From Nanobdellota archaeon (GTDB taxonomy: Archaea; Aenigmatarchaeota; Aenigmatarchaeia; Aenigmatarchaeales; SZUA-1535), in the NCBI GenBank assembly GCA_015661515.1, contig DQVX01000067.1, positions 1 through 34,265 on the forward strand: 34,265 bases of DNA. The letters run 5' to 3'. A program made the translations under genes and the position numbers. Below are positions 1,090 through 32,256 of the stretch, in pieces. Position 1 is the stretch's first letter. Each line of letters starts with the position of its first letter. The notes beneath the pieces are model-generated. The model searched no databases. It was not told where the DNA came from and was given only the letters and a program-made list of their open reading frames with translations.

Positions 1090-2370
1090 ATGTTTGATGA
1101 AAATTTTGTTATAGAATATTTTGAAAAGCTTTTTGAAAGATTGAAAAAAGAAGATATAAAACAAAGAGAACTAAAGATTTCTTTTATAAAAAATAAAGTC
1201 ACTGCCATAATAGGTCCAAGAAGAGCAGGAAAAACTTATTTTATTTTAAAATTTTTGAAAGAAAATAAAAACTCTATATATTTTGATTTGGAGCATGCTG
1301 CATTTAAAGATTTAACACATAAAGAATTTTTTGAAATAATTTCTATTTTTGAGGAAAGATTTAAAATTAAAGTTAAAAATGTTTTGCTTGATGAGATTCA
1401 AAGAATTGATAAATGGGAGATTCTTGTAAGAAGTTTGTTAGATAGTGGGTATAAAGTTCTTATCACAGGTTCTTCTTCAAAACTATTAAGTAAAGAAATT
1501 GCAACCCAATTAAGAGGTAGAAGTTTAAGTTATTTACTTTTGCCCTTAAGTTTTAGAGAATACTTGAATTTCCGCAATTTTAACTTAAGAAAACCTTTTT
1601 CTTTATCTGAGAAAGTAAAGATAATTAATTTTTTGAAAGAGTATTTAGAATGGGGTTCTTATCCAGAAATTTTGCTTGAATGGGATAAAAAAGAAAAAAT
1701 TTTGAAAGAGTATTTTGATACAGTATTACAAAAAGATTTCATAGAGAGATTTAAGGTTGTTAATGTTGAAATAGCAAAACTAATTTTTGAATTCGTGTTT
1801 CAAAACTTTTCTAAAGAGTTAAGTATTAATAAAATAGCAAATTTTGTTTCCTCAAAACTAAGCAAAAATGTAAAAAACATTGTTTATGAATATGTGGAAA
1901 AACTCCCAGAAAGTTTTGCAGTATTTTTTGTTGAAAGATTTGAAGAAAGTGTTTATAAAAGAAAAAGTTTCATGAGAAAAGTTTATATTTGCGATGTTGG
2001 GTTAGCGAATATAATAGGAGTTAAAAAAGATTTTGGTAAAAGAATGGAAAATATTGTTTTTTTGGAGTTATTAAGAAAAACCAATGAAAAACCGTTGATA
2101 ACTGTTTATTATTGGAAAGATTACCAGGGCAAAGAAGTCGATTTTGTCATAAAAGAAGGCTTAAGGATTAAGCAATTAATCCAAGTAACTTATGCTTCTG
2201 CGAGGGATGAAATAGAGCAAAGAGAATTAAGAGCCTTGGTTAAAGCTTCAGAACTTTTAAAGTGTAAAGATCTCTTAGTTATTACTTGGGACTATGAATG
2301 TGAAGAAGAATTCAAAGGAAAGAAAATTAAGTTTATTCCTCTTTGGAAATGGTTGTTAATATCAAATTAA
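1090..2370 (+). CDS. AAA+ ATPase, DUF4143/COG1373 family (full length)
   Basis: Walker A GPRRAGKT and Walker B LLDEIQ. C-terminal restriction-endonuclease-like DUF4143 region (GKEVDFVIK...LIQVTYAS). 426 aa, typical for the family. Confidence 0.85.
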   Translation: MFDENFVIEYFEKLFERLKKEDIKQRELKISFIKNKVTAIIGPRRAGKTYFILKFLKENKNSIYFDLEHAAFKDLTHKEFFEIISIFEERFKIKVKNVLLDEIQRIDKWEILVRSLLDSGYKVLITGSSSKLLSKEIATQLRGRSLSYLLLPLSFREYLNFRNFNLRKPFSLSEKVKIINFLKEYLEWGSYPEILLEWDKKEKILKEYFDTVLQKDFIERFKVVNVEIAKLIFEFVFQNFSKELSINKIANFVSSKLSKNVKNIVYEYVEKLPESFAVFFVERFEESVYKRKSFMRKVYICDVGLANIIGVKKDFGKRMENIVFLELLRKTNEKPLITVYYWKDYQGKEVDFVIKEGLRIKQLIQVTYASARDEIEQRELRALVKASELLKCKDLLVITWDYECEEEFKGKKIKFIPLWKWLLISN

Positions 2371-10794: not shown

Positions 10795-11730
10795 ATGGAA
10801 GAAAGAAAACTTCAAGAAACAGGGCATGGAACATTGATTGTATCTCTTCCTAAGAAATGGATAAAATTAAACAAACTTCATAAAGGAGACATAGTAATAG
10901 TTACTTATTACAAGGATTATTTGATAATTTCTATACCAAAATCCGAAAAATTACAAACAACAATAAAATTTCTGGACATAGAAACAACTTTTAGAGAAAT
11001 AGTTTCAAAGTATATTCAAGGTTTTGATAAAATACATTTAGTTGCAAGTTCTTCACAATGGAAAGAATTAAAAAAAGTAAGGGAATATATACTAAAAAAA
11101 CTTCCTGGAGTTGAAGTAACAGATACTGAAAATGGTATACTTATAGAAATTGTAGCTTCTACAGAAAATTATGGAATAGAAAGAATTATTGAAAGAATAA
11201 ATTCGAATTTAAGATGGATGATATTATCAATAAAGCAAGCTTTAGAAACAAAAGATATAGAACTTCTTAAAGAAGTTTGTGAAAAAGATGATGAAATAGA
11301 TAGGTTAAATTTGCTTGCTAATAGATACATTTTTTCAATTCTCAAAAATCCAGAGTTTTTTAAGCTAAGAGAAAAAATTATATATTTCAAAATAATTTTA
11401 GATAAGTTTGAATCTATAGGAGATAGCATTGAATCTTTAGCAAGAAATTTGATTTTTGTAGTGCAAAATAAAAACTTGCCTATGAAAAAATTTTCAAAAG
11501 TTCTTACTTTAATGGAAAAGCTTATCTCAGATGTTATAAAGGCTTTTTTTAACTTGGATAAACAACTCGCAAACGAAATAATATTTCGAGGGAATAATTT
11601 TTCAAAAATAGCTTTGTCTCAATTGAGAAATATTTCGATTTCAGAGAACTTTGTTATAGCTGTGGAAAACCTTTCACATATTGGGCAATTATGTAAAGAA
11701 GCTGGGGAAGCTATAATAGATTTTGTTTAA
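10795..11730 (+). CDS. PhoU-family regulator with N-terminal AbrB/SpoVT DNA-binding domain
   Basis: GTLIVSLPKKWIKLNKLHKGDIV is a SpoVT/AbrB swapped-hairpin signature. It is followed by PhoU-like helical repeats (EKDDEIDRLNLL). Start taken at ATG 10795 (MEERK). The track TTG at 10759 would include the TATATAT promoter-like element. Confidence 0.75.
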   Translation: MEERKLQETGHGTLIVSLPKKWIKLNKLHKGDIVIVTYYKDYLIISIPKSEKLQTTIKFLDIETTFREIVSKYIQGFDKIHLVASSSQWKELKKVREYILKKLPGVEVTDTENGILIEIVASTENYGIERIIERINSNLRWMILSIKQALETKDIELLKEVCEKDDEIDRLNLLANRYIFSILKNPEFFKLREKIIYFKIILDKFESIGDSIESLARNLIFVVQNKNLPMKKFSKVLTLMEKLISDVIKAFFNLDKQLANEIIFRGNNFSKIALSQLRNISISENFVIAVENLSHIGQLCKEAGEAIIDFV

Positions 11731-12323
11731 GATTTTTCTTCACTTTCTTTTTCTATTTTCATTTCTTTTGGAAGTTCAGGTAAAATTCTTACTTGAATTC
11801 CAATTACTCCTGGTTTTAGTTCTGCTCTTGCATAACCTGTGCGTACAAGTGTTTCTGCGTATTCTCCAGCATATTTAAGATATCCTGCAAAGAATTTTTC
11901 TGTTCTTGCTAATTCTCCAGATAATTTTCCTGAAATAGTTATACAACAACCAGCTGCTTTTTCCATTATTCTTCTTAGCATTACATGAGCAACTTTTTTG
12001 TAATTAATTCCTCTTTCTAAAGCTCTTGCAATTTCTCTTGCCATTACTTGAGCATCAAGCTCAGGAACTTCTACTTCGCGAACATCAAGATTTATGTTAT
12101 CTAATCCAAAATTCTTTTTTATTTCACTTACTATTTTATCTATATTTCTTCCTCTTCTTCCTATAACTAAACCAGGGCGTGCTGCATAAACAACTATTCT
12201 TAGTCCTAAAGGTGTTCTTTGTATTTCGCAATGTGAATACCCAGCCCTATCAAAGAGTTTTTCTAAATATTCTTCAATTTGAGCTCTTTTTATTCCTTCT
12301 ACAATAAATTCTTTTTCTTTCAT
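11727..12323 (-). CDS. rps3: 30S ribosomal protein uS3
   Basis: KH-domain region LGLRIVVYAARPGLVIGRRGRNI. Follows uL22. Confidence 0.93.
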   Translation of the reverse strand: MKEKEFIVEGIKRAQIEEYLEKLFDRAGYSHCEIQRTPLGLRIVVYAARPGLVIGRRGRNIDKIVSEIKKNFGLDNINLDVREVEVPELDAQVMAREIARALERGINYKKVAHVMLRRIMEKAAGCCITISGKLSGELARTEKFFAGYLKYAGEYAETLVRTGYARAELKPGVIGIQVRILPELPKEMKIEKESEEKS

Positions 12324-12706
12324 CTTTTTTCCACCACTAATTTTATATGTGCTATTTTAAGTTTTGAACCAAAACTACTTTTTCTTCTTCTTCTATATAT
12401 AGTTGGACCTTTATTTACAGATAAACATTTTATCCATAAATTTTCTATATCGAATCCTCTAAATTTAGCATTTGCTTCTACACTTTTAAAAATTCTTAAA
12501 AGAGCTTTAGCTGTTTTTGTATAAAGCTTACCATTTACATTTACTTCTTCGTTTACAAGCTTTTCTAAAAATTCCTTCGCTTTTGTAAATTTTTTATATC
12601 TTCTTACAACATACCTTGCAAGCTCGACTCCTTTTTTCCATGAAATATTCTCGGTTGTTTGAGCATACACCATTTTTTCTTTATCAATAGGCACAGGATA
12701 TCCCAT
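12320..12706 (-). CDS. rpl22: 50S ribosomal protein uL22
   Basis: Sits between uS19 and uS3, with size and Lys/Arg-rich composition as expected. Start at ATG 12706, 6 nt after AGGTG. The track GTG at 12715 is inside the SD. Confidence 0.88.
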   Translation of the reverse strand: MGYPVPIDKEKMVYAQTTENISWKKGVELARYVVRRYKKFTKAKEFLEKLVNEEVNVNGKLYTKTAKALLRIFKSVEANAKFRGFDIENLWIKCLSVNKGPTIYRRRRKSSFGSKLKIAHIKLVVEKR

Positions 12707-12717
12707 AGGCAGCACCT

Positions 12718-13107
12718 TTACTTAACAGAGACGAACTTACTTGATCTTGTAGCACCTATTCCTGGTGCAGAGTGTTTTACAGGTTTGCGTGTAGGAGCAA
12801 ATTCTCCAAGTCTATGGCCTATCATTTCAGGTGTAATTTTTACAGGTACAAATTCTTTTCCGTTATGTACTCCAATTGTTAAACCAACCATTTCAGGAAG
12901 AATAACCATATCACGACAATGAGTTTTTATAAATTTATTTGTACCTTTATACTTTCTTATTTTTTGTAAAAGCTTTTTCTCTGCTTCAGTAAAACCACGG
13001 CGAAGTTTTCTTCTTATTCTTGCAGTTGTTATTTTAGCAAATTCATCTAATGACATTTTCTGAAGCTCTTCTAAAGTATAACCTTTATAGGTAAATACTC
13101 TAGCCAT
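12718..13107 (-). CDS. rps19: 30S ribosomal protein uS19
   Basis: Motifs [29 protein letters not shown] and [13 protein letters not shown]. Start at ATG 13107 (MARVF), 5 nt after GAGGTGA. Confidence 0.93.
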
Positions 13108-13112
13108 AATTA

Positions 13113-13826
13113 TCACCTCTTATCTTTACCTGTTTTTCTAATACCAGTTCGTCTTGCAGCTATACTACCAACTTTTGCTCCAGGAGGAGCATGTCTTGAA
13201 ACAGTTTTAGGCTGCCCTGGACCAGTTTGTCCACCAAAAGGATGATCTACAGCATTCATTTTACATGGACTTGTTCTTGGCCAAAGTTTATTTCGAGCTT
13301 TCATAGCATAATATTTTTGTCCTGCTTTTACAAACGGTTTATCTTTTCTTCCTCCACCTGCAGGAATTCCAACTGTTGCTAAGCATCTACCATCAAATTC
13401 TTTAAATTTACCAGAGGGCATTTTAACAACTACAGTTTCTTCTGTTTTTGAAACAACAACAGCATAACTTCCACTTGCTCTGCAAAATTTTGGTCCAGAG
13501 CCAGGAAATGCTTCTATTCCACAAACAGGCGTTCCTGTAGGAATTTGGGAAAGTGGTGCAATACTTTTCGATGAAAAACTTCCTATAGTTATAGTATCTC
13601 CTACCATTAGCCCTTCTGTAGCAATTATAAGTGTTTCTTTTCCATCAGGTAAAGTAACAATAGCTACAGGTGCATTTCTTCCAGGATCATGAACAATATC
13701 TTTAACAATAGCATTTACAGGTTGAGATACATTAATATACCTAACTTTTCCTACATATCTATGCGAAGGTGCACGGTAAGTAGGTGAGCCTTTCCCACGG
13801 CGTTGAGCTATAATCCTTTTTCCCAT
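13113..13826 (-). CDS. rpl2: 50S ribosomal protein uL2
   Basis: [15 protein letters not shown]-terminus and [18 protein letters not shown] motif. Start at ATG 13826. The track GTG at 13835 is inside the SD AGGTGGGG. Confidence 0.95.
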
Positions 13827-13836
13827 TATCCCCACC

Positions 13837-14106
13837 TTATATCATTCCTAATCTTGTAGCTATATCTGAAGCTTTATATTCTTTTGAAAGTTTTACATAA
13901 GCTTTTTTTCTACCTTTTCTATCTATAAGAGTTCTAACTTCTTCTACTTTTACTTCAAAAAGTTTTTCAACAGCTTTAGCTATTTGCTTTTTTGTTGCAC
14001 TTCTATCTACTATAAAAACTATTTTATTTTGCGTTTCTATAAGCCCAACAGCTTTTTCCGTGAGTAAAGGATATTTTATAATTTTAAACGGATCAAAGTT
14101 ATACAT
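13837..14106 (-). CDS. rpl23: 50S ribosomal protein uL23
   Basis: 89 aa with [12 protein letters not shown] and [24 protein letters not shown]. Sits between uL4 and uL2. Confidence 0.92.
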
Positions 14107-14108
14107 AG

Positions 14109-14909
14109 CTATTCACCTAACCTCTTTTTAAGCACCTCAATTGCAGATTTACTCCATATTGTAATTCTTCCTGGATGTGCTCCAGGAGCAAGATGCTCTG
14201 CATTAAGGTCTTTTGCCGAAACTACATCTACACCAGGAATATTTTCAGCAGCTTTGGCAAGAGGAACATTTTTATGGGAAACAACAAAAAGTACAGATTT
14301 TTTCTTTTTATATCTTCTCCCACGCATTTTACCTTTTCCTGCTCTTACTTTTTTCTTTTTAGCTCTTTCGAGTTCTTTTTCTAATCCTATTTTTTTCAAA
14401 AATTCTTCAACTTCTTTTGTTCTTTTAATTTGTTCAACAGAGTCTTCAACAATTATAGGAAGCTCACCTTCATATTTATGTCCACGTTTTTTAACAATTT
14501 CAGGAATGGCAGTAGCAGAAATTGCAGAAATAAGAGCTAATAGTTTTTCTTTTTTGTTTATTTTTTGTTTCCATATTTTCTCAGCTTTTGGAGGATGAGC
14601 TCTTCTTCCACCAACAGCTTGAGGCACAAATCTTGCTCTAAAGTTTAGATGAGGAGAAGAATTATGAATTCTTGGCACTCTTGCAAGCTCACGATTCATC
14701 ATTGTCCATCTTCTATCTCTTCTTCCGTGATAATGGGCGCTTGTTCTTTTTCCAGCAAGAGGATCTGCACCATAAGGTTGGCGTCTATTTGCTTGGAAAG
14801 CAAGAACACAACGTCTTATAATATCTTCTCTTACAGGTTGAGAGAAAAAGCTAGGTAAATTTATTTTTTCTACAACTTTTCCTTCTATGTTAAGTACATT
14901 TGCTTGCAT
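14109..14909 (-). CDS. rpl4: 50S ribosomal protein uL4
   Basis: 266 aa with [20 protein letters not shown] and [14 protein letters not shown] motifs. Sits between uL3 and uL23. Confidence 0.93.
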
Positions 14910-14923
14910 TTTTTAACACCTAA

Positions 14924-15886
14924 TTACTGTTTTGGTGCCAAAGATATATAAGCTATATTTATTGGTGGGTTCTTTTCAGGCGGTCTTATAGCAAAGCGCA
15001 TTCTTATTAATCTTTTCTTTGGTCCAGGAACAGAGCCTTTAACAAGCACGCCTATTGTTTTCAATATTCCATAATGAGGGAATCCGCCTTTTGGATTTAT
15101 TTCTTCAGGTTTAACTATTTTAATTATTCTTTTATTTAGCTCTGTTCTTGTTTGGAATCCATGCTGCCCAGCTGCTGGAACTGTTGGAAGTACACGTCCA
15201 CGACCTCGGCTACCAAGTGCTCCTACATGTCTATGCATTTGTTTCATTTTTCTTCCATGTAGCTTTATTCCAAATCTTTTTACAGGCCCTTCAAACCCAT
15301 GTCCTTTGGTTACTGCAGTTACATCTATCCAATCCCCTTCTTTAAATACATCTGTAACATTAAGTTGTTTTCCTAATAAACTTTTTGCATATTCAAACTG
15401 AGCCTCTGGTGAACCTGCAATACCTATTTCAAAAATTTCAGGTGTTTTTTTGAAAGTAGGATTAGTATGGCATATTAATCTAACTTTAGCAACTTTTTCA
15501 ATATCTACATCTTCAGGATTTATTTTAGGAATTTTTCCTTTTCCAAGCGTTGTTTTTCTTCTCAGCTTAGAATCAAGGTTTTCTGCAAATATGTCGCAAA
15601 GTGTTTTCAAACCTTCGTAAGTTTGCTTATAGCATCTAAATCCAAAAACAGTAAGAGGTGGGCATTCTATAACAGTAACAGGTGTAAAAACTTTCATTCC
15701 ATATGTAGGAGAGTTTTTATCTTCATCTACAAGTAGCACATGTGTCATTCCTGCTTTATATCCTGCGAATCCTAAAGCTTTTGGCTCACCTTCTATTTCT
15801 GGGAAATTTTGCCTTGGATAAATACGTTTAGCTCTTTTTCTTGGATAAAATGCTCTCGAACCTCTTTTTGGTCTACTTTCTCTCAT
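14924..15886 (-). CDS. rpl3: 50S ribosomal protein uL3
   Basis: RPKRGSRAFYPRKRA N-terminal motif, plus AGYKAGMTHV and TKGHGFEGPVKRFG. Start at ATG 15886, 5 nt after AGGTGA. The track GTG at 15895 is inside the SD. Confidence 0.95.
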   Translation of the reverse strand: MRESRPKRGSRAFYPRKRAKRIYPRQNFPEIEGEPKALGFAGYKAGMTHVLLVDEDKNSPTYGMKVFTPVTVIECPPLTVFGFRCYKQTYEGLKTLCDIFAENLDSKLRRKTTLGKGKIPKINPEDVDIEKVAKVRLICHTNPTFKKTPEIFEIGIAGSPEAQFEYAKSLLGKQLNVTDVFKEGDWIDVTAVTKGHGFEGPVKRFGIKLHGRKMKQMHRHVGALGSRGRGRVLPTVPAAGQHGFQTRTELNKRIIKIVKPEEINPKGGFPHYGILKTIGVLVKGSVPGPKKRLIRMRFAIRPPEKNPPINIAYISLAPKQ

Positions 15887-16038
15887 TCGCTTCACCTAAA
15901 AACTTTATTGAGTTTGAAAAGAAAGGTATTTAAATTTTTTTATGATATGTGCGAGTAAATTTATTAATTTTTAGAACAGAAACTGTTACTTTGGTATCTT
16001 AAAAGTTATTTATAAAGTCTGAAGTTGTATAATTCTTT

Positions 16039-17760
16039 ATGATAGAGAATGTTTTTGTTGAATTAAGCATAATCATAATTCTTGCAGTAATAATTTCTGG
16101 GATTATGAAATTTTTAAAACAGCCACTAATAATTGGATATATTCTTACAGGAATTTTAGCTGGCCCACTTTTTCTTAACATAGTTAAGCCACATGATGTA
16201 ATAACAACTCTTTCCCAGTTTGGAATAGTATTCTTGTTATTTATAGCAGGTTTAAGTTTAAACCCAAAGGTATTGAAAAGTGTAGGTAAAGTTTCTCTTA
16301 TAACAGGCTTAGGGCAAATATTATTTACTACTATTATAGGCTTTATAATTGCAAAACTTTTGGGATTTTCGGATATAGAAGCATTGTACATAGCTGTAGC
16401 ATTAACTTTTAGCAGCACTATTATAATAGTAAAATTACTTTCTGATAAAAATGATCTTCAAAGTCTTTACGGAAGAATCTCTTTAGGTTTTCTTATTGTA
16501 CAAGACATAGTTGCGATATTTATTTTAATGGTAATTTCTTCTTTAAACAATGCTATTGATGTTATAAATTTTGTTATGAAAACAATTTTAACAGGGATAG
16601 GTTTGCTTGTTTTTATAGGATTTTTAAGCGTATTTGTTTTACCAAGAATCATTAATATTGTTGCAAAATCACAAGAATTTTTGCTTTTGTTTTCAATAGC
16701 ATGGCTTCTGTTTATAACTATTATTTTCCATTACTTCAATTTCTCAATAGAAATTGGGGCATTGATTGCTGGTATTTCTCTTTCTATGTCTCCTTATCAT
16801 TTTGAAATTAAATCTAAAATGTCTGTACTAAGAGATTTCTTTATTCTTTTCTTTTTTGTTTTACTCGGTTCGCAAATAAGTATTATGAATGTTTCACAAT
16901 TTTTATTACCTATTCTAATTTTTTCTTTATTCATTCTTATCGGAAATCCACTTATAGTAATGTTTTTAATGGGGTTGCTTAGATATACAAAAAGAACAGG
17001 ATTTTTAGCAGGCTTAACTGTAGCTCAAATAAGTGAGTTTTCCTTAATATTAATAGCTTTGGGTGTTAAAGTAGGGCATTTATCTAATGATATATTAGCT
17101 ATGGTAACAACCATAGGATTAATAACAATGTTTGTTTCTACTTATATGATAATTCATGCTAACAAACTATATTGCTATCTTTCTAAATATCTAAACATTT
17201 TTGAAAGAAAAGGAAGAAAAATCGATGAACATATTCATCACAAAGGTAAGCACTACGATATTATTTTATTCGGTTGTAATAGAATAGGATGGAGTTTGCT
17301 TAAATCTCTTAAAAAGGTTAGTAAAAACTTACTTATTGTGGATTATGATCCTGAAATAATAATTTCCTTAGCAAAAAAAGGATATGAATGTAGGTATGGA
17401 GATGCAAATGATATAGAATTCCTAAACAAATTGGATTTCTCTAAAACAAAAATGGTGATTTCAACAATTCCAGATATAGAAACTAATTTGTTGCTTATAA
17501 GAAAAATTAAAGAAGTCAATAAAAAAGCTATAATAATTATTGTTTCTCATCAAATCGAAGAAGCTTTGAAATTATATGAAAGTGGAGCAACATATGTTAT
17601 AATGCCATATTTCTTAGGCGCTCAACATGCATCAACGTTAATAGAAAAATATGGAATGGATTTAAGAAAGTTCCTTGAAGAAAAATCAAAGCAAATAGCT
17701 CATTTGAAGACAAGAATTAAATTGAAACATGAACATCCTAAAGCAGAAAGACATAGATAA
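16039..17760 (+). CDS. Kef-type monovalent cation:proton antiporter (CPA2) with C-terminal RCK/TrkA-N domain
   Basis: About 12 TM segments of a Na/H-exchanger-like region, followed by a Rossmann-like IILFGCNRIGWSL ... DANDIEFL domain. 573 aa. Confidence 0.85.
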   Translation: MIENVFVELSIIIILAVIISGIMKFLKQPLIIGYILTGILAGPLFLNIVKPHDVITTLSQFGIVFLLFIAGLSLNPKVLKSVGKVSLITGLGQILFTTIIGFIIAKLLGFSDIEALYIAVALTFSSTIIIVKLLSDKNDLQSLYGRISLGFLIVQDIVAIFILMVISSLNNAIDVINFVMKTILTGIGLLVFIGFLSVFVLPRIINIVAKSQEFLLLFSIAWLLFITIIFHYFNFSIEIGALIAGISLSMSPYHFEIKSKMSVLRDFFILFFFVLLGSQISIMNVSQFLLPILIFSLFILIGNPLIVMFLMGLLRYTKRTGFLAGLTVAQISEFSLILIALGVKVGHLSNDILAMVTTIGLITMFVSTYMIIHANKLYCYLSKYLNIFERKGRKIDEHIHHKGKHYDIILFGCNRIGWSLLKSLKKVSKNLLIVDYDPEIIISLAKKGYECRYGDANDIEFLNKLDFSKTKMVISTIPDIETNLLLIRKIKEVNKKAIIIIVSHQIEEALKLYESGATYVIMPYFLGAQHASTLIEKYGMDLRKFLEEKSKQIAHLKTRIKLKHEHPKAERHR

Positions 17761-17792
17761 TTTTAAAATTTTTTCAATAATTTAATTTTCAC

Positions 17793-18149
17793 ATGAAAAT
17801 AGTTATTGATACAAATTTTTGGATATATGCAGTGCTTTATAAGATAAGAATATTCGAAGAGCTATTAGGCTATGAAATATATACCTTAGACAAAGTTTTA
17901 CAAGAATTAAAGCAAATTTCAAAAAAGAAAACAAAACAAGCTATAGCTTCTAAAATTGCTCTTGGAATGATTGAAAAATTTAATGTGAAAATTATAAATG
18001 CTCCTAAATCTGCAGACGAAAAATTGGTTGAACTCGCAACACAAGGTTTTATAATAGCAACAAATGATGCTGAACTTGTGAAAAAAATAAAAAATTTAGG
18101 TGGAAAAGTAGCTCAAATTCGTCAGAAAAAGTACATTGAATTTCTTTAA
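17793..18149 (+). CDS. PIN-domain protein (Fcf1/COG1412-like)
   Basis: MKIVIDTNFWIY (first acidic PIN motif) and IIATNDAELVKKIK (C-terminal acidic motif). 118 aa. Confidence 0.75.
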   Translation: MKIVIDTNFWIYAVLYKIRIFEELLGYEIYTLDKVLQELKQISKKKTKQAIASKIALGMIEKFNVKIINAPKSADEKLVELATQGFIIATNDAELVKKIKNLGGKVAQIRQKKYIEFL

Positions 18150-18948
18150 AATAGTTTTCCACCTATAAAAGCTAAAAGACCTAAAAACATAGAAATTTTC
18201 GACCATTTTACTGCTTTGCTTGGAGAAATAAGAGAAAGAACACAGGTATAAGCAAAACTTAATACACAAGGGAGTACTAATAAAAGATACGCATCACTGA
18301 AAATTCCTAGTAAATACGGAAGAGGTGCTAAAGCAATTGAGCAGAGCATAAAGCTTATAGAAAAAATACTTGCTTCGAATTTTCCTATAGCTACGGCAAG
18401 CGTTTTTATATTAGCTTTTTTATCACCTTCAAAATCTTCGACATCTTTTATTATTTCCCTTCCTATATTCGAAACAAAAGCCAAAAGAGATAAAACTATT
18501 GGTGCAGGGTTTTGCGAAATTATTCCACCGTAAAGAAATATAGAAGCCACTAAATAAGCTATTACAAGGTTTTTAATAAATATTATTCTTTTTAGTTTAA
18601 ATGAATAAAGTATAAGAAGAATAGAATTGAAAAAAGCCAAAAGAAAAGCATTAATTCCTAAAAAAAGAGAGGTAATTATTCCAATACAAAAGAAAATTGA
18701 AGAAAAAATTACTAAAAGTTTGCTATATTTTTTTGTTATTTTCCATTTTTGAGGCTTATTTATTTTATCAATTTCAATATCAAAAAAATCGTTTATTAAC
18801 ATCCCTCCTGCGCATATAAAAAATACAGAAACAAATGCTAAAAGAAATATATTAAACTCTGAAACATCTCCTATCCATAAAGAAAAAATTATAGCTAAAC
18901 CAGCCATTAAGCAATTTACTGGCCTTAAAAGTAAAATAAAATCTTTCA

Positions 18949-18949
<1 letters not shown>
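18146..18949 (-). CDS. UbiA-family prenyltransferase, digeranylgeranylglyceryl phosphate synthase-like
   Basis: First Asp-rich motif NDFFDIEIDKINKP and second motif KDVEDFEGDKKANIKTLAV. Polytopic membrane protein of 267 aa. Confidence 0.82.
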
Positions 18950-19702
<753 letters not shown>

Positions 19703-19705
19703 ATT

Positions 19706-20149
19706 TCATATCATTCTTTCAAGAAGCTCATTTATAGCAGAACCTCTATATCCAAGTTCACCTTTTGGGTAATGTTCTTTTATAGATTTTTTAAATCCCT
19801 TGGAAGGAGGTGCAAGCCTAAAAACAGGTTTTAAACCAAGTCTTATTAATACTTTTGCCGGCTGTTCTTCACTCTTTTTAAGTTCTTGTAATACCTTTTC
19901 TACTTCTTCTTTACTAAGTCTTTTATCTCCAATTTTTCTTCCACGTTTTTCTATTAGCTTTTTCAATGTTTCTTCTGAAATTTCACCCCATGTAATATAA
20001 TCTTTAGCTTTTTGAAGCATTCCTTTTATAGAATCATTTAATTTAAAAAGCACACAATGATGTTTACGATGTAATCTAAGCATTTTTAAAGTATCTTGTA
20101 TATCCCTTCTTACACCAACTCTTCCACGAATCCTTATTACTGCAATCAC
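19706..20149 (-). CDS. rpl30: 50S ribosomal protein uL30
   Basis: (M)IAVIRIRGRVGVRRDIQDTLKMLRL. GTG start 6 nt after GGTGA, with a GTGA overlap onto the uS5 stop. Confidence 0.92.
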   Translation of the reverse strand: MIAVIRIRGRVGVRRDIQDTLKMLRLHRKHHCVLFKLNDSIKGMLQKAKDYITWGEISEETLKKLIEKRGRKIGDKRLSKEEVEKVLQELKKSEEQPAKVLIRLGLKPVFRLAPPSKGFKKSIKEHYPKGELGYRGSAINELLERMI

Positions 20150-20832
20150 TCTTTCTCACCTATTATACCAGATTTTATTTTAAATTCTTCTGGAAGCTTA
20201 TATCTATGAAGAGATTTAAGAGCATCAAAAACTGCTCTTACAAAATTTATTCTTGTTCTTGTATCTCCACGTGATTTCATCCATATATCTTGGATTCCTG
20301 CTAAGCGTAAAAGCTTTTTAATTTCATCAGGAGCACATAATCCAAGACCACGAGGAGCAGGCATTAGTTTTACTCTTACAGATCCACATTTTCCTGTAAC
20401 AGTTAATGGTATAGAATGTTTTTCTCCACATCTACATTCCCAAGAACCACAACCTCTTAAAATAGGAATAATATTTTTCTTAGCTTCTCTTACAGCTTTT
20501 TCATAAACTTCTCTTTGCTTACCCATAGGTCCTGCTCCAAGTCCTATTCCAACCCAACCATCTTCATTTCCAACTGCTACAAGCATAGAAATTTTATGTC
20601 TTCTTCCGCTCTTGTGCATGCGTGTTGTTCTTCTTACAGGAACTCTTTTCTTTCCTCCACCTTTTCCTGAAGAACCTCCTATAAGAAAGATTTCTACTTT
20701 AAGATTAGGAAGAAGAAAATCCACTATTTCAGGTTCCATTATTCTATACCCTTTAAGGAAAACCTCATCTAAGCTATTTATTTCTCCATTTAATACTTTT
20801 CTTCCTAACTCTGTTTTAGGAACCCATTCCAT
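20146..20832 (-). CDS. rps5: 30S ribosomal protein uS5
   Basis: GGGKKRVPVRRTTRMHKSGRR and VAVGNEDGWVGIGLG motifs. Start at ATG 20832 (MEWVPKTELGRKV), 6 nt after GAGGTG. Confidence 0.93.
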   Translation of the reverse strand: MEWVPKTELGRKVLNGEINSLDEVFLKGYRIMEPEIVDFLLPNLKVEIFLIGGSSGKGGGKKRVPVRRTTRMHKSGRRHKISMLVAVGNEDGWVGIGLGAGPMGKQREVYEKAVREAKKNIIPILRGCGSWECRCGEKHSIPLTVTGKCGSVRVKLMPAPRGLGLCAPDEIKKLLRLAGIQDIWMKSRGDTRTRINFVRAVFDALKSLHRYKLPEEFKIKSGIIGEKE

Positions 20833-21328
20833 TGAAAGCACCTCTTATTCTTTCAGCAACTTCTTTTACTTTTTTTTCCATATCTTCTGATATATGTTTT
20901 CCATATATTCTTTCTTCTGAAGGTAAAATTTCTTCTGAATGAGGAACATGAATTCCTGCATCAAGCACACCTTTAAGAGCAGCATATATTCTTCCTCCTT
21001 TTGTAGATGTTTGCAAACCTATATCTAAAACACCTTCTTTTATTCCAGCTTTTTTAGCTTTAAGCCCAGCTAATAAACCTGTTAAATATGCAGCAGGAAC
21101 ATTACCACAGTAATGATCCCAACCATATTTTGCAAGCTCTTTTGAAAATGCCTGAACTATAGTATGATCACCTTCTCCAGTCCATTTTATAAACTGTACA
21201 CGCATATGCTTTAAAGATTTTCTTACAACTACTCTTATTTTCCCTGATTTAAGCAATTTTAATCTTTTTCTATAATTAGTTTTTAGTTCTCTTCTTCTCC
21301 TATGTTTTACTACATATCCTTTTTTCAT
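20816..21328 (-). CDS. rpl18: 50S ribosomal protein uL18
   Basis: HRRRRELKTNYRKRLKLLKSGKIRVVVRKSLKHMRVQ. ATGA overlap with the eL19 stop. AGGTGA lies 6 nt upstream. Confidence 0.93.
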   Translation of the reverse strand: MKKGYVVKHRRRRELKTNYRKRLKLLKSGKIRVVVRKSLKHMRVQFIKWTGEGDHTIVQAFSKELAKYGWDHYCGNVPAAYLTGLLAGLKAKKAGIKEGVLDIGLQTSTKGGRIYAALKGVLDAGIHVPHSEEILPSEERIYGKHISEDMEKKVKEVAERIRGAFNGMGS

Positions 21329-21798
21329 TTGTTTTCACCTTCTTTTAAAAGCTCGTGGTCTTTTAGATATGCTAGCAGGTGCTTTTTGCTTCTAAACATA
21401 CCACCTTTTATTAAGCGGTATATTTTTCTATATACAGATCTTTCGATAACACCTTTATCACGCAAAATCTTAATAAGTTTTCTTTGTGCACGAACTTTTT
21501 TCAACCATTCAGTTTTTTCTCCTTGTCTTGCACCTTTTGCCCCTTTTCTACTTCCTGGTCCACGTCTTCTTCCTTTTTTCTTTTGAAGCATTTTTTTCTT
21601 TGCTTCAGGGTTTTTTTCTCTTTTTTCTTTAATTTTTTTGATTACACCTTTTTTAATAAGCTTTCTAACGTCTTCTCTTGTAATAGCTTTTTTTGCTTCT
21701 TCTACTTTTTCAGGATCTATCCATACTTTAGTTATACCACATTTAAGCAAATCAGCTGCCATTCTTTTTACAGTCCTTATATTTGTCATAACCATCAC
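21325..21798 (-). CDS. rpl19e: 50S ribosomal protein eL19
   Basis: RMAADLLKCGITKVWIDPEKVEE and KGRRRGPGSRKGAKGAR motifs. Start ambiguous among GTG 21798, ATG 21795 and ATG 21789. Confidence 0.9.
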   Translation of the reverse strand: MMVMTNIRTVKRMAADLLKCGITKVWIDPEKVEEAKKAITREDVRKLIKKGVIKKIKEKREKNPEAKKKMLQKKKGRRRGPGSRKGAKGARQGEKTEWLKKVRAQRKLIKILRDKGVIERSVYRKIYRLIKGGMFRSKKHLLAYLKDHELLKEGENK

Positions 21799-21956
21799 AT
21801 CATTTCTGGCTTTTCTTTTGAACCTTCGATAAGCACACCAAAATGGTTAAAAAATGCATTACAACATGGACATTTAAATACCTTAGGAGTTTTTTTCCAT
21901 TCTATACCTTCTATTCCACAATAAGGGCATTTATTTTCACTTACCATTAGGAACAT
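21795..21956 (-). CDS. small CPxCG-type zinc-ribbon protein (53 aa, not in ORF track)
   Basis: Hand translation: [56 protein letters not shown] 21956 lies 5 nt after GGTGA, the same spacing as at neighbouring genes. The ORF overlaps the last 20 nt of eL32, and its TGA (21797..21795) overlaps the eL19 start region. It fills the only sizeable gap in the operon. Confidence 0.6.
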   Translation of the reverse strand: MFLMVSENKCPYCGIEGIEWKKTPKVFKCPCCNAFFNHFGVLIEGSKEKPEMM

Positions 21957-22350
21957 TTTCTTCACCACATTTTAGAGGGTTTAATACTCTTAATCCAAGT
22001 TCTTGAGCTTTTTTCATTATTTCTATTCTTTTCTTTTTTCCAACTTGCGAAGCTATTCTTACTGCATGTATTTTAGGATCTAAACCTTCTAGATCATTAA
22101 CATTAAATACTCGTACTTCTTTAAGTCCTGATGGGTGTAAACCTCTTACAAGAGCAGGTGAACCATAACCAGGATGTGGAAGAAAACCTTTACCTTTTTC
22201 ATGTCTTCTTAATTTCGAGTGTCTTCCTTTAGGTCTGCGCCATTTTTCTCCTAATCTTGGAAATCTAAACCAATTTTGCCTAAGGAATTCTGGCTTTTTC
22301 CTTTTCATAATTCTTCTTATCTTAAGCAATCTTTTCAACTCCTCTATCAT
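21937..22350 (-). CDS. rpl32e: 50S ribosomal protein eL32
   Basis: [30 protein letters not shown] motif. ATGA overlap with the uL6 stop. Confidence 0.92.
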
Positions 22351-22877
22351 TCTTTACTCACCAAATAAATTCCATCTTGGAATACTCTTCTATCAAGATG
22401 TGTAACTCTTGTTGCTTGCTCTATATTAGCAGCTGTTTGCCCAACTTCTTCTTTATTTATACCTTCTACTATGATTTCTTGCCCATTAACTTTTACATTA
22501 ACATTTCCAACAATTTTAGCTATTCTAGGAACTTTTTCGCCCAAAAAGTTTTTAATTATTACTTTATCTCCTTTTACTTCCACAGTTATAGGAAAGTGAA
22601 CATAAACAGCTTTAAGCTTATATTTGTAACCTTGAGTAACACCTTTTATCATATTCCTTATATGTGCAGCTATTGTACCTACCATAGCTTTTATTTTTCT
22701 TCTATCAATTGAACTTTTTACAATAACATTTTTTTCTTGAATTTTTATTTCTATATAATCTCTATAAAGCGGTGAGCTAAAATCTCTTTCAAGCTCACCT
22801 TTTGGACCTTTAACTTTAACTTTAAGCCCTTCTACTTCAATTTCAACATTTTCTGGAATTTTTACTTTTTTCTCCAT
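22347..22877 (-). CDS. rpl6: 50S ribosomal protein uL6
   Basis: [27 protein letters not shown]. 176 aa, between uS8 and eL32. Confidence 0.93.
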
Positions 22878-22887
22878 TTAAATCACC

Positions 22888-23274
22888 TTAATAAACATAT
22901 ACCAAAAGTTTTCCTCCTATTCCTTTTTTCTTTGCTTCTTCGTGAGACATAACACCTTGAGAAGTTGTAACTATAAGTATCCCAAGTCCTGCAGCAGGTA
23001 AATATCTTCGCTCATATTTTTCAAATTCATCTTTTTTAACAGAAAATCTAGGTCTTATAGCACCACATTTATTTATTCTCCCTAAAAGCTCTATTTTTAT
23101 TTTTCCTCCTCTCCCATCTTCTATATATTCAAAATCTCCTATGTAATTATATCTTTGCATGACTTTAAGAATATTTTTTATCAAATTTGATGCTTTAACA
23201 ATTACAAAAGGTTTTCCTACTCTTTCAGCATTTGTTATTGCTGAAGCAAAATCCGAAACTAAGTCATGCTGCAT
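22888..23274 (-). CDS. rps8: 30S ribosomal protein uS8
   Basis: [18 protein letters not shown] and C-terminal [11 protein letters not shown]. Start at ATG 23274, 6 nt after AGGTG. The track GTG at 23283 is inside the SD. Confidence 0.93.
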
Positions 23275-23286
23275 AATTAACACCTT

Positions 23287-23475
23287 TTAGGAATATTTTT
23301 TAAAACCTATTTTTTTGGCAATTTCTCTAAAGCATTGTCTACAATACATTAGCCCATATTTTTTTATTATACCACCATATCTTCCACATCTTCTACACAT
23401 ATATAAAGCTTTTCCAGTTGTTCTTTTCTTAGGTGTTCCACCTAAAAACTGTTTCATTCTCTCTATTCTACTCAT
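23287..23475 (-). CDS. rps14: 30S ribosomal protein uS14 (zinc-binding type)
   Basis: 62 aa with CRRCGR...CRQCFRE. Confidence 0.93.
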
Positions 23476-23975
23476 ACTATCTCAACCCCGAATGTTTTTT
23501 TAACCCATTCTATGGCTTCATGTTTTTTAATTATATGCTTTTTACCAATTTTTCTTTTAAGCTTTTTACGTTTTACTCTATAGCCAGGTCTTTCAAGAGT
23601 TACACAAACATCCATACCTAAAATTCCTATTTCAGGATCAAATTTTACTCCAGGAATATCTATATATTCTTTAATACCGAATGAGAAATTTCCAAATTCA
23701 TCAAAACATGAAGCTGGAAGTTTGTTATCTATAGCCTTTAAAGCTTTTTTAAGAAATTCATAAGCTTTTTCTTTTCTTAATGTAACTTTTGCTCCTATAG
23801 GTCTATTTCTTGCCATCCCAAATGTAGTTCTTTTATGAGTTTTTGTAATTATAGGTTTTTGATTAGTAAGTTTTTCAAGAAGTTTTAAAGCTCTTTCAAG
23901 TTTTTCTCCTCCTCCACCACAACCTATATTAAGCGTGACTTTTTCTATTCTTATTTCTCTCATCGGGTTCTGCAT
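23472..23975 (-). CDS. rpl5: 50S ribosomal protein uL5
   Basis: [18 protein letters not shown] and [15 protein letters not shown] motifs. Confidence 0.93.
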
Positions 23976-23979
23976 AGTT

Positions 23980-24651
23980 TCACACCTTTATTAATGGTTT
24001 ATCTTCACCTACAACTATTATGTTTTTGAAAGGAGCCCAAAAGCTTTCTTCTCCTTCTATGAATACTCTATTAAGCTTCCATCCCCTTTCTATTTTTACA
24101 ATTTTTCCCATTTTTCCAGCATTTTTACCTGCAAAAATAAAGCATAGTACACCTTCTTTAAAAGGAATGTGCTTAACTATTTTTTGAGAAGGGACTTCAA
24201 TTAAAAGGGAATCTTGAGTATTATATGTATTTTCTCCTAAAATATTTCTTCCATCATGAAGATTAAACTGTATTCTACCACCCTTTACAGCTCTTTTACC
24301 TATTATTTTACAAATCTTTAACCTTTTTTCGCTTTCATCTATTTCTACAGGAAGTAGTTTTTTACCTCTTGGTAATATCCTATATGCTTTGTTCATTTTC
24401 GGAATTTCTACAACATCAAAAACACCAACTCCAAATTTATGATCCTTTATTACTCTACCATCAACAAGAATTTCACCTTTTTTAATAATTTTTTTAACCT
24501 CTTTATAAGTTTCTGCAAAGCCTAAATAATCTCTAATAAGCACAGCAAGAGCTATTGATCTTTCTAAAGGATGTGGTCCACGTGGAGCTACTGTATATTT
24601 GGCTTTTTTCTTTTCTTTTGCTAAAGGATGTGCCAATCTTTTTAATATCAT
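23980..24651 (-). CDS. rps4e: 30S ribosomal protein eS4
   Basis: LKRLAHP..., [24 protein letters not shown], and a KOW-like C-terminal part. ATGA overlap with the uL24 stop. Confidence 0.92.
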
Positions 24652-25031
24652 TCACTTCCACCTTTTCCCGCTCTTTCAATAATTTTAAGGCGCATTTTAT
24701 CGCTCATATCAGCTTTTATAATCATAAGGTTTGAAGGGTGAATAGGAACTTTTACTTCTTCTCCAGTTGATTTTTTTCTTGTAATTCCTTCTATATATAC
24801 TCTAAGCTTTTTTAAATCAACTTTTACAACTTTTCCTATCCTTCCCTTAAATTCGCCTCTGAGTATTTTAACTTCATCACCTTTTCTTACAGGTAAAGAC
24901 CTTCTTCCGAATTTTTCTCTCAACTCTTTGCTCAAATGAGCACTCATAAGTTTTTGCCTTTTATGGAGTGGGGCTTCATACAAAGCCTTTCTTTGTTTTC
25001 TTGGTTGTTTTGAATGTGTTTTGTTAGTCAT
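24648..25031 (-). CDS. rpl24: 50S ribosomal protein uL24
   Basis: [34 protein letters not shown] plus a KOW motif [16 protein letters not shown]. Confidence 0.93.
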
Positions 25032-25032
25032 A

Positions 25033-25431
25033 TTACACCACGATTGAAGCTATTTTTCCTATAGCAGGAAATCTTTCTACAGCTTCTTTAGCAACAGGGC
25101 CTTTTATTTCACTTCCTCTTGGTTCATTTTTTTCATTAATCAATACAGCAGCATTATCTTCAAATTTTATTCTCATTCCATCAGGTCTGCGATATTCTTT
25201 TTTCTGTCTTATTATAACAGCCATAACTACTTGTTTTCTTATTTTTGGATCTCCTTTTTTTACTGAACAGAAAACTATATCTCCAACTCCTGCTTTTGGA
25301 TATCTTCTTCTAACACCTTTATACCCACGTACAGCTATTATTTGCAAAACTTTTGCTCCTGTATTGTCTGCACATTTAAGATATGTGCCAACATTAAGGG
25401 CTTTTGTTACTTTAGAGCCTATACCCTTCAT
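25033..25431 (-). CDS. rpl14: 50S ribosomal protein uL14
   Basis: [17 protein letters not shown] and [22 protein letters not shown]. Confidence 0.94.
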
Positions 25432-25763
25432 TTTTCACCCCTTTTAAGCACTTCTATTACAACAAATGATTTTGTTTTTGATAACGGTCTACATTCCATA
25501 ATTTTTACTATATCTCCTTCTTTAGCATTAATACATTCAGGATTATAAGCAGCAACTTTTGTTTTTCTTCTTTCATATCTTTCATATTTTGGGACATAAT
25601 GAACATAATCCCATTGGACTATAGCTGTTTTATGAGCTTTTGCAGAGACAACTTTACCTACAAACATTCTTCCTCTTACAGGTAAAGTTCCGTGCCATGG
25701 ACATTTTGGGTCAGAGCATTCTTTTTCAGGAGGCTTTGCAGGTACACCAATATTTCTTACCAT
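25428..25763 (-). CDS. rps17: 30S ribosomal protein uS17
   Basis: [34 protein letters not shown] and [16 protein letters not shown]. Confidence 0.93.
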
Positions 25764-26047
25764 TTTCTCACCTTCTTTTTTATTCTTTCTTCAGGCCGTG
25801 CAAGTATAGCATTTCCATCTACTAGCACTTTTTTTCCATCAGGTAATATAAACATAAAGATTGTATCTTTTTTTGGAATTTTTTTAATTTTACTCTTTTC
25901 ATCTTCTATCCATAGCATATTTTTTGTTTCATTCACTACAAGCCCTTTTATCCCTTCATTAAGTTTATTTTTAGCTTGTTTCACCTCTACTTTTAAACCT
26001 ATAAGTTCATGTTGTAATATGTTTTTTGGTGTAATTTTAATTTTCAT
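25757..26047 (-). CDS. rnp1: RNase P protein component 1 (Rpp29/Pop4 homolog)
   Basis: [35 protein letters not shown] (Sm-like Rpp29 core). Canonical position between SUI1 and uS17. Confidence 0.85.
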
Positions 26048-26352
26048 TAAACTATCACTTCTATTTGTTCTTCATTAAATCCAAATTCTACAAGTAATTT
26101 TTTAACTTTTTCTCTATGATCTCCTTGTAATTCAAGTCTATCATTTTTATATGTTCCTCCACATGCAAGTTTTTTCTTAAGCTTTCTTAATAGTTCTTCA
26201 GGATTCATATCTTTGGAAATCCCTTCTATTATTGTTACATTTTTTCTATAACGCTTTTTTTCAAGATATATTTTAATTTTTGCAGATTCTTTTTCTATTG
26301 CTTCACATACACAGAGCTCTTTTGGCAAACCACATTTTTTACAAACTTCTAT
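26047..26352 (-). CDS. sui1: translation initiation factor aIF1 (SUI1); start codon unresolved (AUA 26352 proposed, TTG 26328 is the first canonical start)
   Basis: SUI1 core KIYLEKKRYRKNVTIIEGI...LACGGTYKNDRLELQGDHREKVKKLL. The frame is open back to the uL29 stop and encodes EVCKKCGLPKELCVCE upstream of the TTG. There is no in-frame ATG or GTG. ATA lies 6 nt after GGAGGTGA. Confidence 0.85.
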   Translation of the reverse strand: MEVCKKCGLPKELCVCEAIEKESAKIKIYLEKKRYRKNVTIIEGISKDMNPEELLRKLKKKLACGGTYKNDRLELQGDHREKVKKLLVEFGFNEEQIEVIV

Positions 26353-26358
26353 TTCATT

Positions 26359-26559
26359 TCACCTCCCTTTACGAAGATTTAATTCAGTAAGTATTCTTGC
26401 TATACATCTTCTAAGTTCTCTTATTCTTCCAGGATTTGTAACCGCTCCTACTACACGTTGAGCATTTAGTTTCATTAATTCAAGCCTAAATTCATTTAAT
26501 TTTTTCTTTAACTCTTCTTCACTCATTTTCTTTATTTCTTTTTTTCTTATTATCGCCAT
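26359..26559 (-). CDS. rpl29: 50S ribosomal protein uL29
   Basis: 66 aa with EIKKMSEEELKKKLNEFRLELMKLNAQ. Confidence 0.92.
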   Translation of the reverse strand: MAIIRKKEIKKMSEEELKKKLNEFRLELMKLNAQRVVGAVTNPGRIRELRRCIARILTELNLRKGR

Positions 26560-26565
26560 TTTAAT

Positions 26566-27009
26566 TCACCAATTTTTTGAATTTTCTATTATTTCAACAC
26601 TTCCTCCTGCAGCTTCTATTTTTTCTCTTGCTCTTTCTGTAACGTATATTGCTTTAATTTTAAGTGGTTTCGTTATAGTTCCACTAGAAATAACTTTTTT
26701 GTATCCAAGTTCTAACAAATTTATTTCTTCTTTTCCAAGTTTTGAAGCGAGAATATCAAGTTCTCTTAAAGTTATTACCTTTTCTCTTTCTCTCTTTCTT
26801 TTGATTGTTGGATACATTCCACGTTTAAAGCCTATTTTACCGAAATGTTGAGGATCTTGCATTAAAACCATTTGTCTTTTATGATCTTTACTACCAGCAA
26901 AACCTTTTCCTCCTCTACTACCTTTTCCACGGTGTTTTTTCTTTGAACCAAATCCATGAGTTTTACTTCCTCTAAGTTTTCTTACTTTTTTTCTTCTTCT
27001 CACAACCAT
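26566..27009 (-). CDS. rpl15: 50S ribosomal protein uL15
   Basis: RKLRGSKTHGFGSKKKHRGKGSRGGKGFAGS N-terminal motif. 147 aa. Unusually placed directly upstream of uL29. Confidence 0.9.
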   Translation of the reverse strand: MVVRRRKKVRKLRGSKTHGFGSKKKHRGKGSRGGKGFAGSKDHKRQMVLMQDPQHFGKIGFKRGMYPTIKRKREREKVITLRELDILASKLGKEEINLLELGYKKVISSGTITKPLKIKAIYVTERAREKIEAAGGSVEIIENSKNW

Positions 27010-31982: not shown

Positions 31983-32256
31983 GCAGGAGGCTAGGCCGGG
32001 GGGTTGGGGGTCCCCTGTAACCGGAAATCCCCCTTATGCCGGGGCCGAAGCCCGAGGGCGGCTATGTGCTGAAAGGAAGTCCTGCAGGTGAACAATGAAA
32101 TTCCGTCCCGTGGAGTCGTAGCCGTGGCGAACCGGTCAGGCCCGGAAGGGAGCAGCCGTAAGCCACGAGCTACGATGTTCACGGGGGTGCGGAATGGAGG
32201 AAGCCTGCAGGGGCGCTTCCTTTCAGCACATAGTCCACCGAGGGCGCGCCTCCTGC
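31983..32256 (+). ncRNA. signal recognition particle RNA (7S RNA), about 274 nt
   Basis: 5' Alu-domain sequence GGCTAGGCCGGGGGGTTGGGGGTCCCCTGTAACCGGAAA...GCCGGGGCCGAAGCCCGAGGG is typical of archaeal SRP RNA. Helix 8 core is GGTCAGGCCCGGAAGGGAGCAGCC with a GGAA tetraloop at 32144..32147. The termini pair (GCAGGAGGC with GCCTCCTGC). Long helix 5 pairings include 32062..32079 with 32216..32233. G+C-rich island in A+T-rich DNA. Confidence 0.9.

Follow-up and report, generated by a model that had tools for sequence, protein, structure and literature searches.

A candidate translation-associated zinc-ribbon microprotein encoded between eL32 and eL19 in uncultured archaea

No gene array in archaea is more conserved than the spc operon, whose content is regarded as settled, with eL32 followed directly by eL19. 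In the 34,265-nucleotide stretch of DNA analysed here (the window), an open reading frame of 53 codons lies between these two genes. The original prediction, made from the sequence of the window, took it to be an unannotated gene for a small zinc-ribbon protein, possibly one associated with the ribosome. The locus thus raises the question of whether the frame is a gene, to what kind of protein it gives rise, and what such a protein would be doing among the ribosomal proteins. To our knowledge, the ribosomes of the uncultured archaea that carry it have never been purified.

The reading frame and its conservation

The frame occupies positions 21795..21956 of the minus strand, which is the operon strand, and runs from an ATG to a TGA at 21797..21795; both its coordinates and its translation agree with the ORF list and are as originally predicted. 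Starting at an alternative in-frame GTG at 21968 would give a protein of 57 aa. The upstream partner is the gene for eL32 (21937..22350, minus; Pfam Ribosomal_L32e, E 9e-40), and the start of the microprotein gene overlaps its 3' end by 20 nt (21937..21956), exactly the overlap that had been claimed. A Shine-Dalgarno-like GGTGA was read at 21962..21966 (minus), within the last codons of eL32 and at the predicted distance of 5 nt before the microprotein ATG. The GGTG is retained at the equivalent site in the relatives L001 and L009-L013, and across the family the enrichment of such motifs is modest, ie 41% compared to 22% in control windows. Downstream lies eL19 (21325..21795, start at 21795/8, minus), recognised by the Pfam L19e N- and C-terminal domains. 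The stop codon had been said to overlap the eL19 start region, and the overlap amounts to a single shared base: the junction reads TGATG, the last base of the microprotein TGA being the first base of the eL19 ATG. Start/stop overlaps typical of translational coupling recur in relatives, in keeping with the proposal that the gene is a translationally coupled member of the operon. A scan for bacterial-type promoters and terminators performed no better than on shuffled sequences.

The identical protein has been called on five other public contigs with the same synteny. The word-indexed search that gave these contigs returned only one further homologue, P0002, which is 87% identical. When the DNA was aligned with that of L001, an 87%-identical relative, the substitutions within the ORF were found mostly at third codon positions. 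Substitution rates against L001 were determined from Nei-Gojobori counts over codons 8-48, the overlap with eL32 being excluded. In the frame of the ORF dS was 0.79 and dN 0.091, giving a dN/dS of 0.11, well under the limit of 1 proposed along with the original prediction; the corresponding ratios for the other two frames were 1.15 and 0.51.

More distant relatives were sampled through eL19 homologues at graded identity, and from these their contigs. An ORF of 48-53 aa with the pattern CPxCG...CPxC occupies the gap between eL32 and eL19 in L009-L013, where eL19 is 83, 77, 73, 66 and 65% identical, respectively. The ORF and its frame are retained in L001 and L009-L013 while eL19 identity drops from 88% to 65%. 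At an eL19 identity of 56% (L014) the ORF is absent and eL32 abuts eL19, and the same arrangement is found in the loci from Bathyarchaeia and Nanohaloarchaea (eL19 identity 39%), which were the sole eL19-based returns from GTDB genome contigs and were used as negative controls. The frame and the four cysteines are kept in relatives both close and distant, as had been anticipated, and the sequence comparisons show that the ORF is a real gene under purifying selection.

The gene was originally described as unannotated, which holds for some assemblies and not for others. Several public assemblies already carry it as an unnamed or hypothetical protein gene call. In the public MAG contig L012 the ORF (1418..1570) is uncalled, because the eL19 call there (1501..2034, 177 aa) has been over-extended upstream across it; annotation pipelines do, therefore, sometimes lose this gene.

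Protein family, predicted fold and gene neighbourhood

A phmmer search against 1.84 billion cluster representatives gave 39 matches at E<1e-3, nearly all of them 48-63 aa long. In HMMER-derived alignments of 40 and 54 sequences the residues C10, P11, C13, C29 and C32 are invariant and G14, G17 and F39 nearly so, as is G40 in the 40-sequence alignment. The first zinc knuckle is C10-P-Y-C13 followed by G14 (21918..21929, minus), and the second is C29-P-C-C32 (21861..21872, minus). The two Cys pairs of the original prediction, CPYC and CPCC, are thus present, with a spacing from C13 to C29 of 15 residues rather than the 14 stated. Relatives have Ser or Asn at the third position of CPCC, so the effective second knuckle is C29/C32. 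The core of the ribbon comprises codons 10-40 (21838..21929, minus) and follows the pattern CPxCGxxGxxWxxxPxVFxCPxCxxxFxxFG, which is matched once in the window. Beyond it, at 21798..21837 (minus), comes a C-terminal tail, VLIEGSKEKPEMM, consisting of a short hydrophobic strand and then a charged part that is predicted from AF2 pLDDT to be disordered.

Further members were sought in metagenomes with a degenerate DNA motif equivalent to CPxCGxxG-x11-CxxCxxx[FY]xx[FY]G. It matched 15 of 15 positive loci and none of three negative loci, and it matches once in the window compared to no match in 100 shuffles. The metagenome scan gave at least 120 matches, and all those listed are family ORFs of 44-59 aa. 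Since a match to the motif already requires the Cys, Gly and aromatic residues, the invariance of these was judged from the HMMER-derived alignments only. The 120 complete ORFs listed correspond to 108-109 unique proteins, and many of the metagenome loci may be related populations. At positions which the motif does not force, the 108 unique sequences among the matches listed have W20 in 96%, P24 in 85%, F or Y27 in 82% and P30 in 94%. In the same 108 sequences the FG is followed by [LIV][VI][LIV]E, with the E present in 79%. The tail of these sequences (median 14 residues) has 25% acidic and 7% basic residues and ends in W (49%), F (19%) or I (9%) followed by T, S or N (79%). Among the matches listed the core carries a mean charge of +2.9 and the tail one of -2.6. 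Family proteins are about 45-60 aa in length, and the first Cys, at residue 10 in the window protein, is found at residues 4-14 in nearly all members and at residue 22 in one.

Two subfamilies were distinguished. Subfamily 1, which includes the window protein, has a hydrophobic N-terminus (MF/MY-L-I/M-G) and its gene is located between eL32 and eL19. In subfamily 2 the N-terminus is short, the first knuckle contains CGT and the protein ends in W[STN]. The taxon-labelled members come from a few MAGs marked by their submitters as Nanoarchaeota, Micrarchaeota, Aenigmarchaeota or simply 'archaeon', and their source names are 'hypothetical protein'. The taxon-labelled eL19 closest to that of the window, at 62% identity, is in a MAG labelled Micrarchaeota. 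No description of the gene was found in a literature search.

The zinc ribbon that had been expected from structure prediction was obtained. With the 54-sequence alignment, AF2 gave a model of the window protein with a mean pLDDT of 79, rising to 88-90 over residues 11-40, with strands at 18-21, 26-28 and 41-43 in a zinc-ribbon topology. In the tail the pLDDT falls to 73 and then to 43. The subfamily 2 model has the same topology (pLDDT 74, tail 53), and neither model contains a helix. The predicted fold is, accordingly, a C4 zinc ribbon in which two CxxC knuckles flank a beta-hairpin and a third strand follows the second knuckle, and the core is basic and the tail acidic across the family, the tail being predicted to be intrinsically disordered in both subfamilies. 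A Foldseek search of the PDB with the two models gave no match below E 0.2; those listed are generic ribbons, namely Rieske proteins, RBR domains, Cas12f/TnpB, NudC, RNAP subunit I, TFS4 and eL43.

No member of the family scored above any Pfam or NCBIfam cut-off. The commonest sub-threshold models were MJ0042 (22 of 54 members), TFS4 (17/54), YnfU (16/54), L37ae (15/54) and DUF7573 (11 of 40). Against PDB sequences the family profile gave nothing below E 1e-3, the best matches, all to the ribbon only, being eS27 (E 1e-3, 31 residues), TFS4 (1.5e-3) and eL43 (1.6e-3 to 1.7e-2). Two members carry the JGI automatic names 'L37AE/L43A' and DUF1610, for which the scores give no support. The haloarchaeal CPxCG micro-proteins (HVO_0758, HVO_2901, DUF7573) are similar in size class, in the CPxCG knuckle and in having acidic regions. 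The matches to DUF7573 had a best E of 1.7e-4, scored 17-18 bits where the cut-off is 30.2, and covered the knuckles only; the genes of the haloarchaeal proteins are not known to lie in the spc operon. Judged by the Pfam, NCBIfam, PDB-sequence, Foldseek and literature searches, the microprotein family belongs to no described family. The family is new and of a known kind, namely small zinc-ribbon proteins encoded in the neighbourhood of translation genes.

The gene neighbourhood was determined with HMMs built for uL6, eL32 and eL19, which were used to scan 131 non-redundant loci of those collected; 115 of these were informative for context and 16 were too short to tell. In this set eL32 was directly upstream on the same strand in 101 of the 115 informative loci (100, plus L094), and in the 100 the gap from eL32 to the microprotein gene ranged from -32 to +131 nt. 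In eight loci eL32 was upstream at a distance, with roughly 430-820 nt between, and each of the six of these that were inspected had one ORF inserted between the two genes. In L020, L108, L121 and L125, which form one sublineage, the inserted ORF is about 206-214 aa long with an HDHxDH motif and, by eye from the sequence, reads like a metallo-beta-lactamase-fold hydrolase; the microprotein gene in these four loci is still coupled to eL19. Two loci had eL32 adjacent on the opposite strand, in convergent orientation, and four of the 115 had no ribosomal gene nearby. In L040 and L123 the microprotein gene is not beside eL32, being located between very large ORFs (>750-1000 aa) which, again by eye, read like surface proteins, yet a protein near-identical to that of L040 and L123 is encoded after eL32 in L092.

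Conservation of the downstream gene was less strict. Of the loci collected, 54 had eL19 immediately after the microprotein gene, and 52 had no eL19 although their sequence continued for at least 500 nt beyond it. The subfamily 2 contigs that were looked up have the order RpoA''-uL6-eL32-microprotein, beyond which come genes that are unrelated and lie on the opposite strand. The pairing with eL32 persists without an adjacent eL19, which points to eL32 as the constant partner. In 27 loci containing all four genes the mean identity to the window was 62% for uL6, 66% for eL32, 52% for the microprotein and 61% for eL19, and the divergence of the microprotein correlated with that of the other three (r 0.82-0.88). 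It follows that the gene has been inherited vertically with the operon and has evolved only slightly faster than its neighbours.

Two other features of these neighbourhoods were recorded. In L062, L098, L105 and L120, all of subfamily 2, a protein of 130-137 aa recurs a few kb from the microprotein gene, with the sequence MKKG.KLPK... and a C-terminal ribbon, CPSC...C(S/T)(R/K)CG. The eL32 of the Bathyarchaeia and Nanohaloarchaea loci, which are without the microprotein, is 177 and 214 aa long (L007 2471..3004 and L008 2326..2970) and bears a long, highly charged C-terminal extension, compared to 104-140 aa in loci carrying the microprotein. To link the extension with the absence of the microprotein would, with two cases only, be pure speculation.

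Possible role of the protein

Our best explanation, to which we assign a probability of roughly 0.55 from the gene context, is that the protein is a lineage-specific ribosomal protein, held on rRNA near eL32 and eL19 by its basic ribbon and docking through its acidic/aromatic tail. On this view the gene is expressed, and its family is passed on vertically within the archaeal spc operon of uncultured lineages labelled DPANN. The gene is inserted between eL32 and eL19 and would be translated in step with both, through the Shine-Dalgarno motif in the eL32 3' end and the overlap of stop and start codons, so that the amount of protein would be matched to eL32 and its action would be on the large ribosomal subunit. 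The basic face of the ribbon (conserved K/R, W20, P24 and F27) would bind rRNA near eL32 or eL19, and the C-terminal peptide, acidic and aromatic, would attach to a basic neighbour or to a recruited factor.

There is a precedent in the aS21-type proteins (DUF1610/COG2888/HVO_2753), which are likewise small archaeal zinc ribbons that were at first linked to translation by gene context alone and later seen in ribosome structures. The T. kodakarensis ribosomes 6skf, 6skg and 6th6 include a chain entered as 'Predicted zinc-ribbon RNA-binding protein involved in translation', so that small zinc ribbons to which gene context first drew attention have turned out to be ribosomal. The aS21-type proteins themselves are a different family. 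They belong to the small subunit and have two zinc sites with four CPxCG-type pairs, whereas the microprotein family has one site and two conserved CxxC pairs; only six of 54 members weakly matched the PRK14890 or HVO_2753 models (E>1e-3), and the family profile gave E 0.3 with the PDB chain 6skf_Az and 0.11 with 9fny_A1.

Several observations count against a ribosomal protein. A near-neutral net charge and an acidic tail are unusual features for such a protein, four loci have the gene away from ribosomal genes, and the family-wide enrichment of Shine-Dalgarno-like motifs is only modest. Operon membership can, moreover, mean hitch-hiking on a strong constitutive promoter. Association with the ribosome is something we infer from sequence and position, and do so much more strongly given the adjacency to eL32 in 101 of the 115 informative loci. 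A gene that accompanies eL32, or occupies the eL32-eL19 junction, over a broad radiation of uncultured archaea has a strong claim to be a part of their translation apparatus that has so far been missed. If it is ribosomal, the archaeal ribosome would gain one more protein, and one with an unusual acidic docking tail.

A more detailed version is offered tentatively, as something that may well prove wrong in one or other of its parts. The protein would be an unrecognised lineage-specific protein of the large subunit, anchored by its ribbon near eL32/eL19, in which the acidic tail ending in W or F offers a docking site to a factor of translation or of the nascent chain, much as the C-terminal tail of the P-stalk does on a larger scale, and the insertion between eL32 and eL19 would be a rare change common to several DPANN phyla. 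Such a rare genomic change, if truly shared by DPANN phyla, could be used as a marker where DPANN monophyly is debated. A large protein-family survey found no DPANN-specific families (PMC8204110), perhaps because proteins as small as this one are missed. Whatever the protein does, whether its gene is there or missing at this single fixed junction can be scored simply and without an alignment, and such a character has a bearing on how the DPANN lineages are related.

Much of the same evidence would be accounted for if the protein were a chaperone or assembly factor dedicated to eL32 (or eL19). In that case the protein would not be a stable component of the ribosome; its tail would shield the basic ribosomal protein, whose capture would be ensured by co-translation. 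The strict adjacency to eL32 and the overlap of start and stop codons speak for such a factor, and an acidic disordered tail on a small folded domain has the composition typical of escorts of basic proteins, as in the dedicated ribosomal-protein chaperones of eukaryotes. The ribbon core is itself basic, however, and resembles an RNA binder, and we know of no archaeal dedicated ribosomal-protein chaperone of this kind. The present evidence fits a chaperone and a stable ribosomal protein alike, and on balance we regard the former as unlikely.

Less likely again is a non-ribosomal zinc-ribbon regulator riding in the operon, either one binding RNAP in the manner of TFS4 or RpoP or an RNA-binding autoregulator of the operon. 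The closest backbone superposition was indeed with the C-terminal ribbon of TFS4 on archaeal RNAP (7oqy_Y; rmsd 0.9 Å over 30 residues, 37% identity, E 0.32), to which may be added the weak NCBIfam and PDB-profile matches to TFS4 given above, the RpoA'' gene at the head of the cluster in one subfamily, and the four loci outside a ribosomal context. None of the RNAP or TFS matches is significant, however. The TFS proteins are 90-110 aa long, with an N-terminal ribbon and a linker; in the microprotein family the N-terminal domains are missing and the gene context is a different one. For RpoP (Rpo12) the NCBIfam model PRK00398 gave E 0.06-0.08 and 13 bits against a cut-off of 89, and PDB chains E 0.1-0.17. 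The constant neighbour is eL32, and no RNAP gene occurs in those eL32-microprotein-eL19 loci for which neighbours are listed.

The protein might also be a known one, ie a diverged and relocated orthologue or paralogue of eL43/L37Ae, eS27, eS31 or eL40, which we consider improbable. The weak profile matches to eS27 and eL43, the 15 of 54 members touched by the L37ae model, the JGI name 'L37AE/L43A' of one member and the eL43 chains listed by Foldseek (E 0.5-1.5) speak for it. Like eL43 the protein is small, with a single C4 ribbon, a CPxCG first knuckle and a hairpin of 14-15 residues, and is encoded with translation genes. The scores, however, are far below the cut-offs and no better than those for the TFS4, MJ0042, YnfU and Lar ribbons. 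The Pfam model for eL43 (Ribosomal_L37ae, PF01780) did not match the window protein even at E<=10, and the best match of any member to the NCBIfam model PRK03976 was sub-threshold at E 8.7e-4. Members of the eL43 family, at 65-95 aa, are strongly basic proteins; a long, basic N-terminal extension precedes their ribbon and a GGAY-type motif follows it. In the microprotein family the extension of about 30 aa and the strongly basic composition were not found; the first Cys is preceded by 3-14 residues (by 21 in one member), and the ribbon is followed by FxxFG[LIV][VI][LIV]E and an acidic tail in place of basic ends. No canonical eL43 was seen within the collected loci themselves, an absence that speaks neither for nor against a replacement.

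The case for eS27 is similar. The knuckle spacing of 15 residues is the same and eS27 was the best PDB sequence match, but in eS27 the N-terminal region, of about 30 aa, is basic and the C-terminus is of the PTGGK type; only two of 54 members matched PRK00415 at E<0.1, none reached the cut-off, and the basic N-terminal region is lacking. Nop10 gave PDB chains at E 0.6, and its C-terminal Cbf5-binding helix is absent from the AF2 models. For eL40 and uS14 the window has separate candidates. PRK04136 (eL40) does not match the microprotein, and matches end to end, at E 4e-7 and 29 bits (cut-off 54), a C4 protein of 59 aa (...CRKC...CRHC...) encoded at 18949..19128 (minus). This ORF has no Pfam match and is probably, from its sequence, a divergent eL40 that pipelines may leave unnamed. 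A zinc-type uS14 with its own CxxC pairs is encoded at 23287..23475 (minus), and Pfam Ribosomal_S14 is recorded for the corresponding gene in L002, a contig identical to the window. A COG survey of tiny DPANN genomes reported the loss of L13e, S30, L18a and L39e, and not of zinc-ribbon proteins (preprint 10.1101/2021.01.31.429008), which also argues against a displaced known protein. The assertion that the protein is unlike eL37, eL40, eL43, eS27, eS31, uS14, RpoP and Nop10 has thus been upheld, in that there is no clear HMM match to any of them. Lastly, a chance ORF in a non-coding spacer, for which its shortness (53 codons) and the lack of a database family match might be cited, is refuted: more than 100 loci retain the frame, the length, the Cys pattern and the position of the ORF, and the synonymous bias is specific to the microprotein frame.

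Other features of the window

The ribosomal superoperon of the window (11727..27009, minus) is rearranged, as judged by the gene list of L002. The gene for uL15 (26566..27009) is located upstream of uL29-SUI1-RNase P p29-uS17...uL30, and the uL3-uL4-uL23-uL2-uS19-uL22-uS3 block (about 11727..15895) lies downstream, not upstream, of the spc block. Between the spc and uL3...uS3 blocks are genes for a flavin reductase, the probable eL40, UbiA, a PIN protein and a Na+/H+ exchanger. No tRNA genes were found anywhere in the window. An archaeal SRP RNA was found at 31984..32255 (plus), matching Rfam RF01857 over its full length with 181 bits. At the other end of the window, on the plus strand, there are two tandem paralogous genes for AAA_14 + DUF4143 ATPases (38..1036 and 1090..2370), the first of which appears to be N-terminally truncated.
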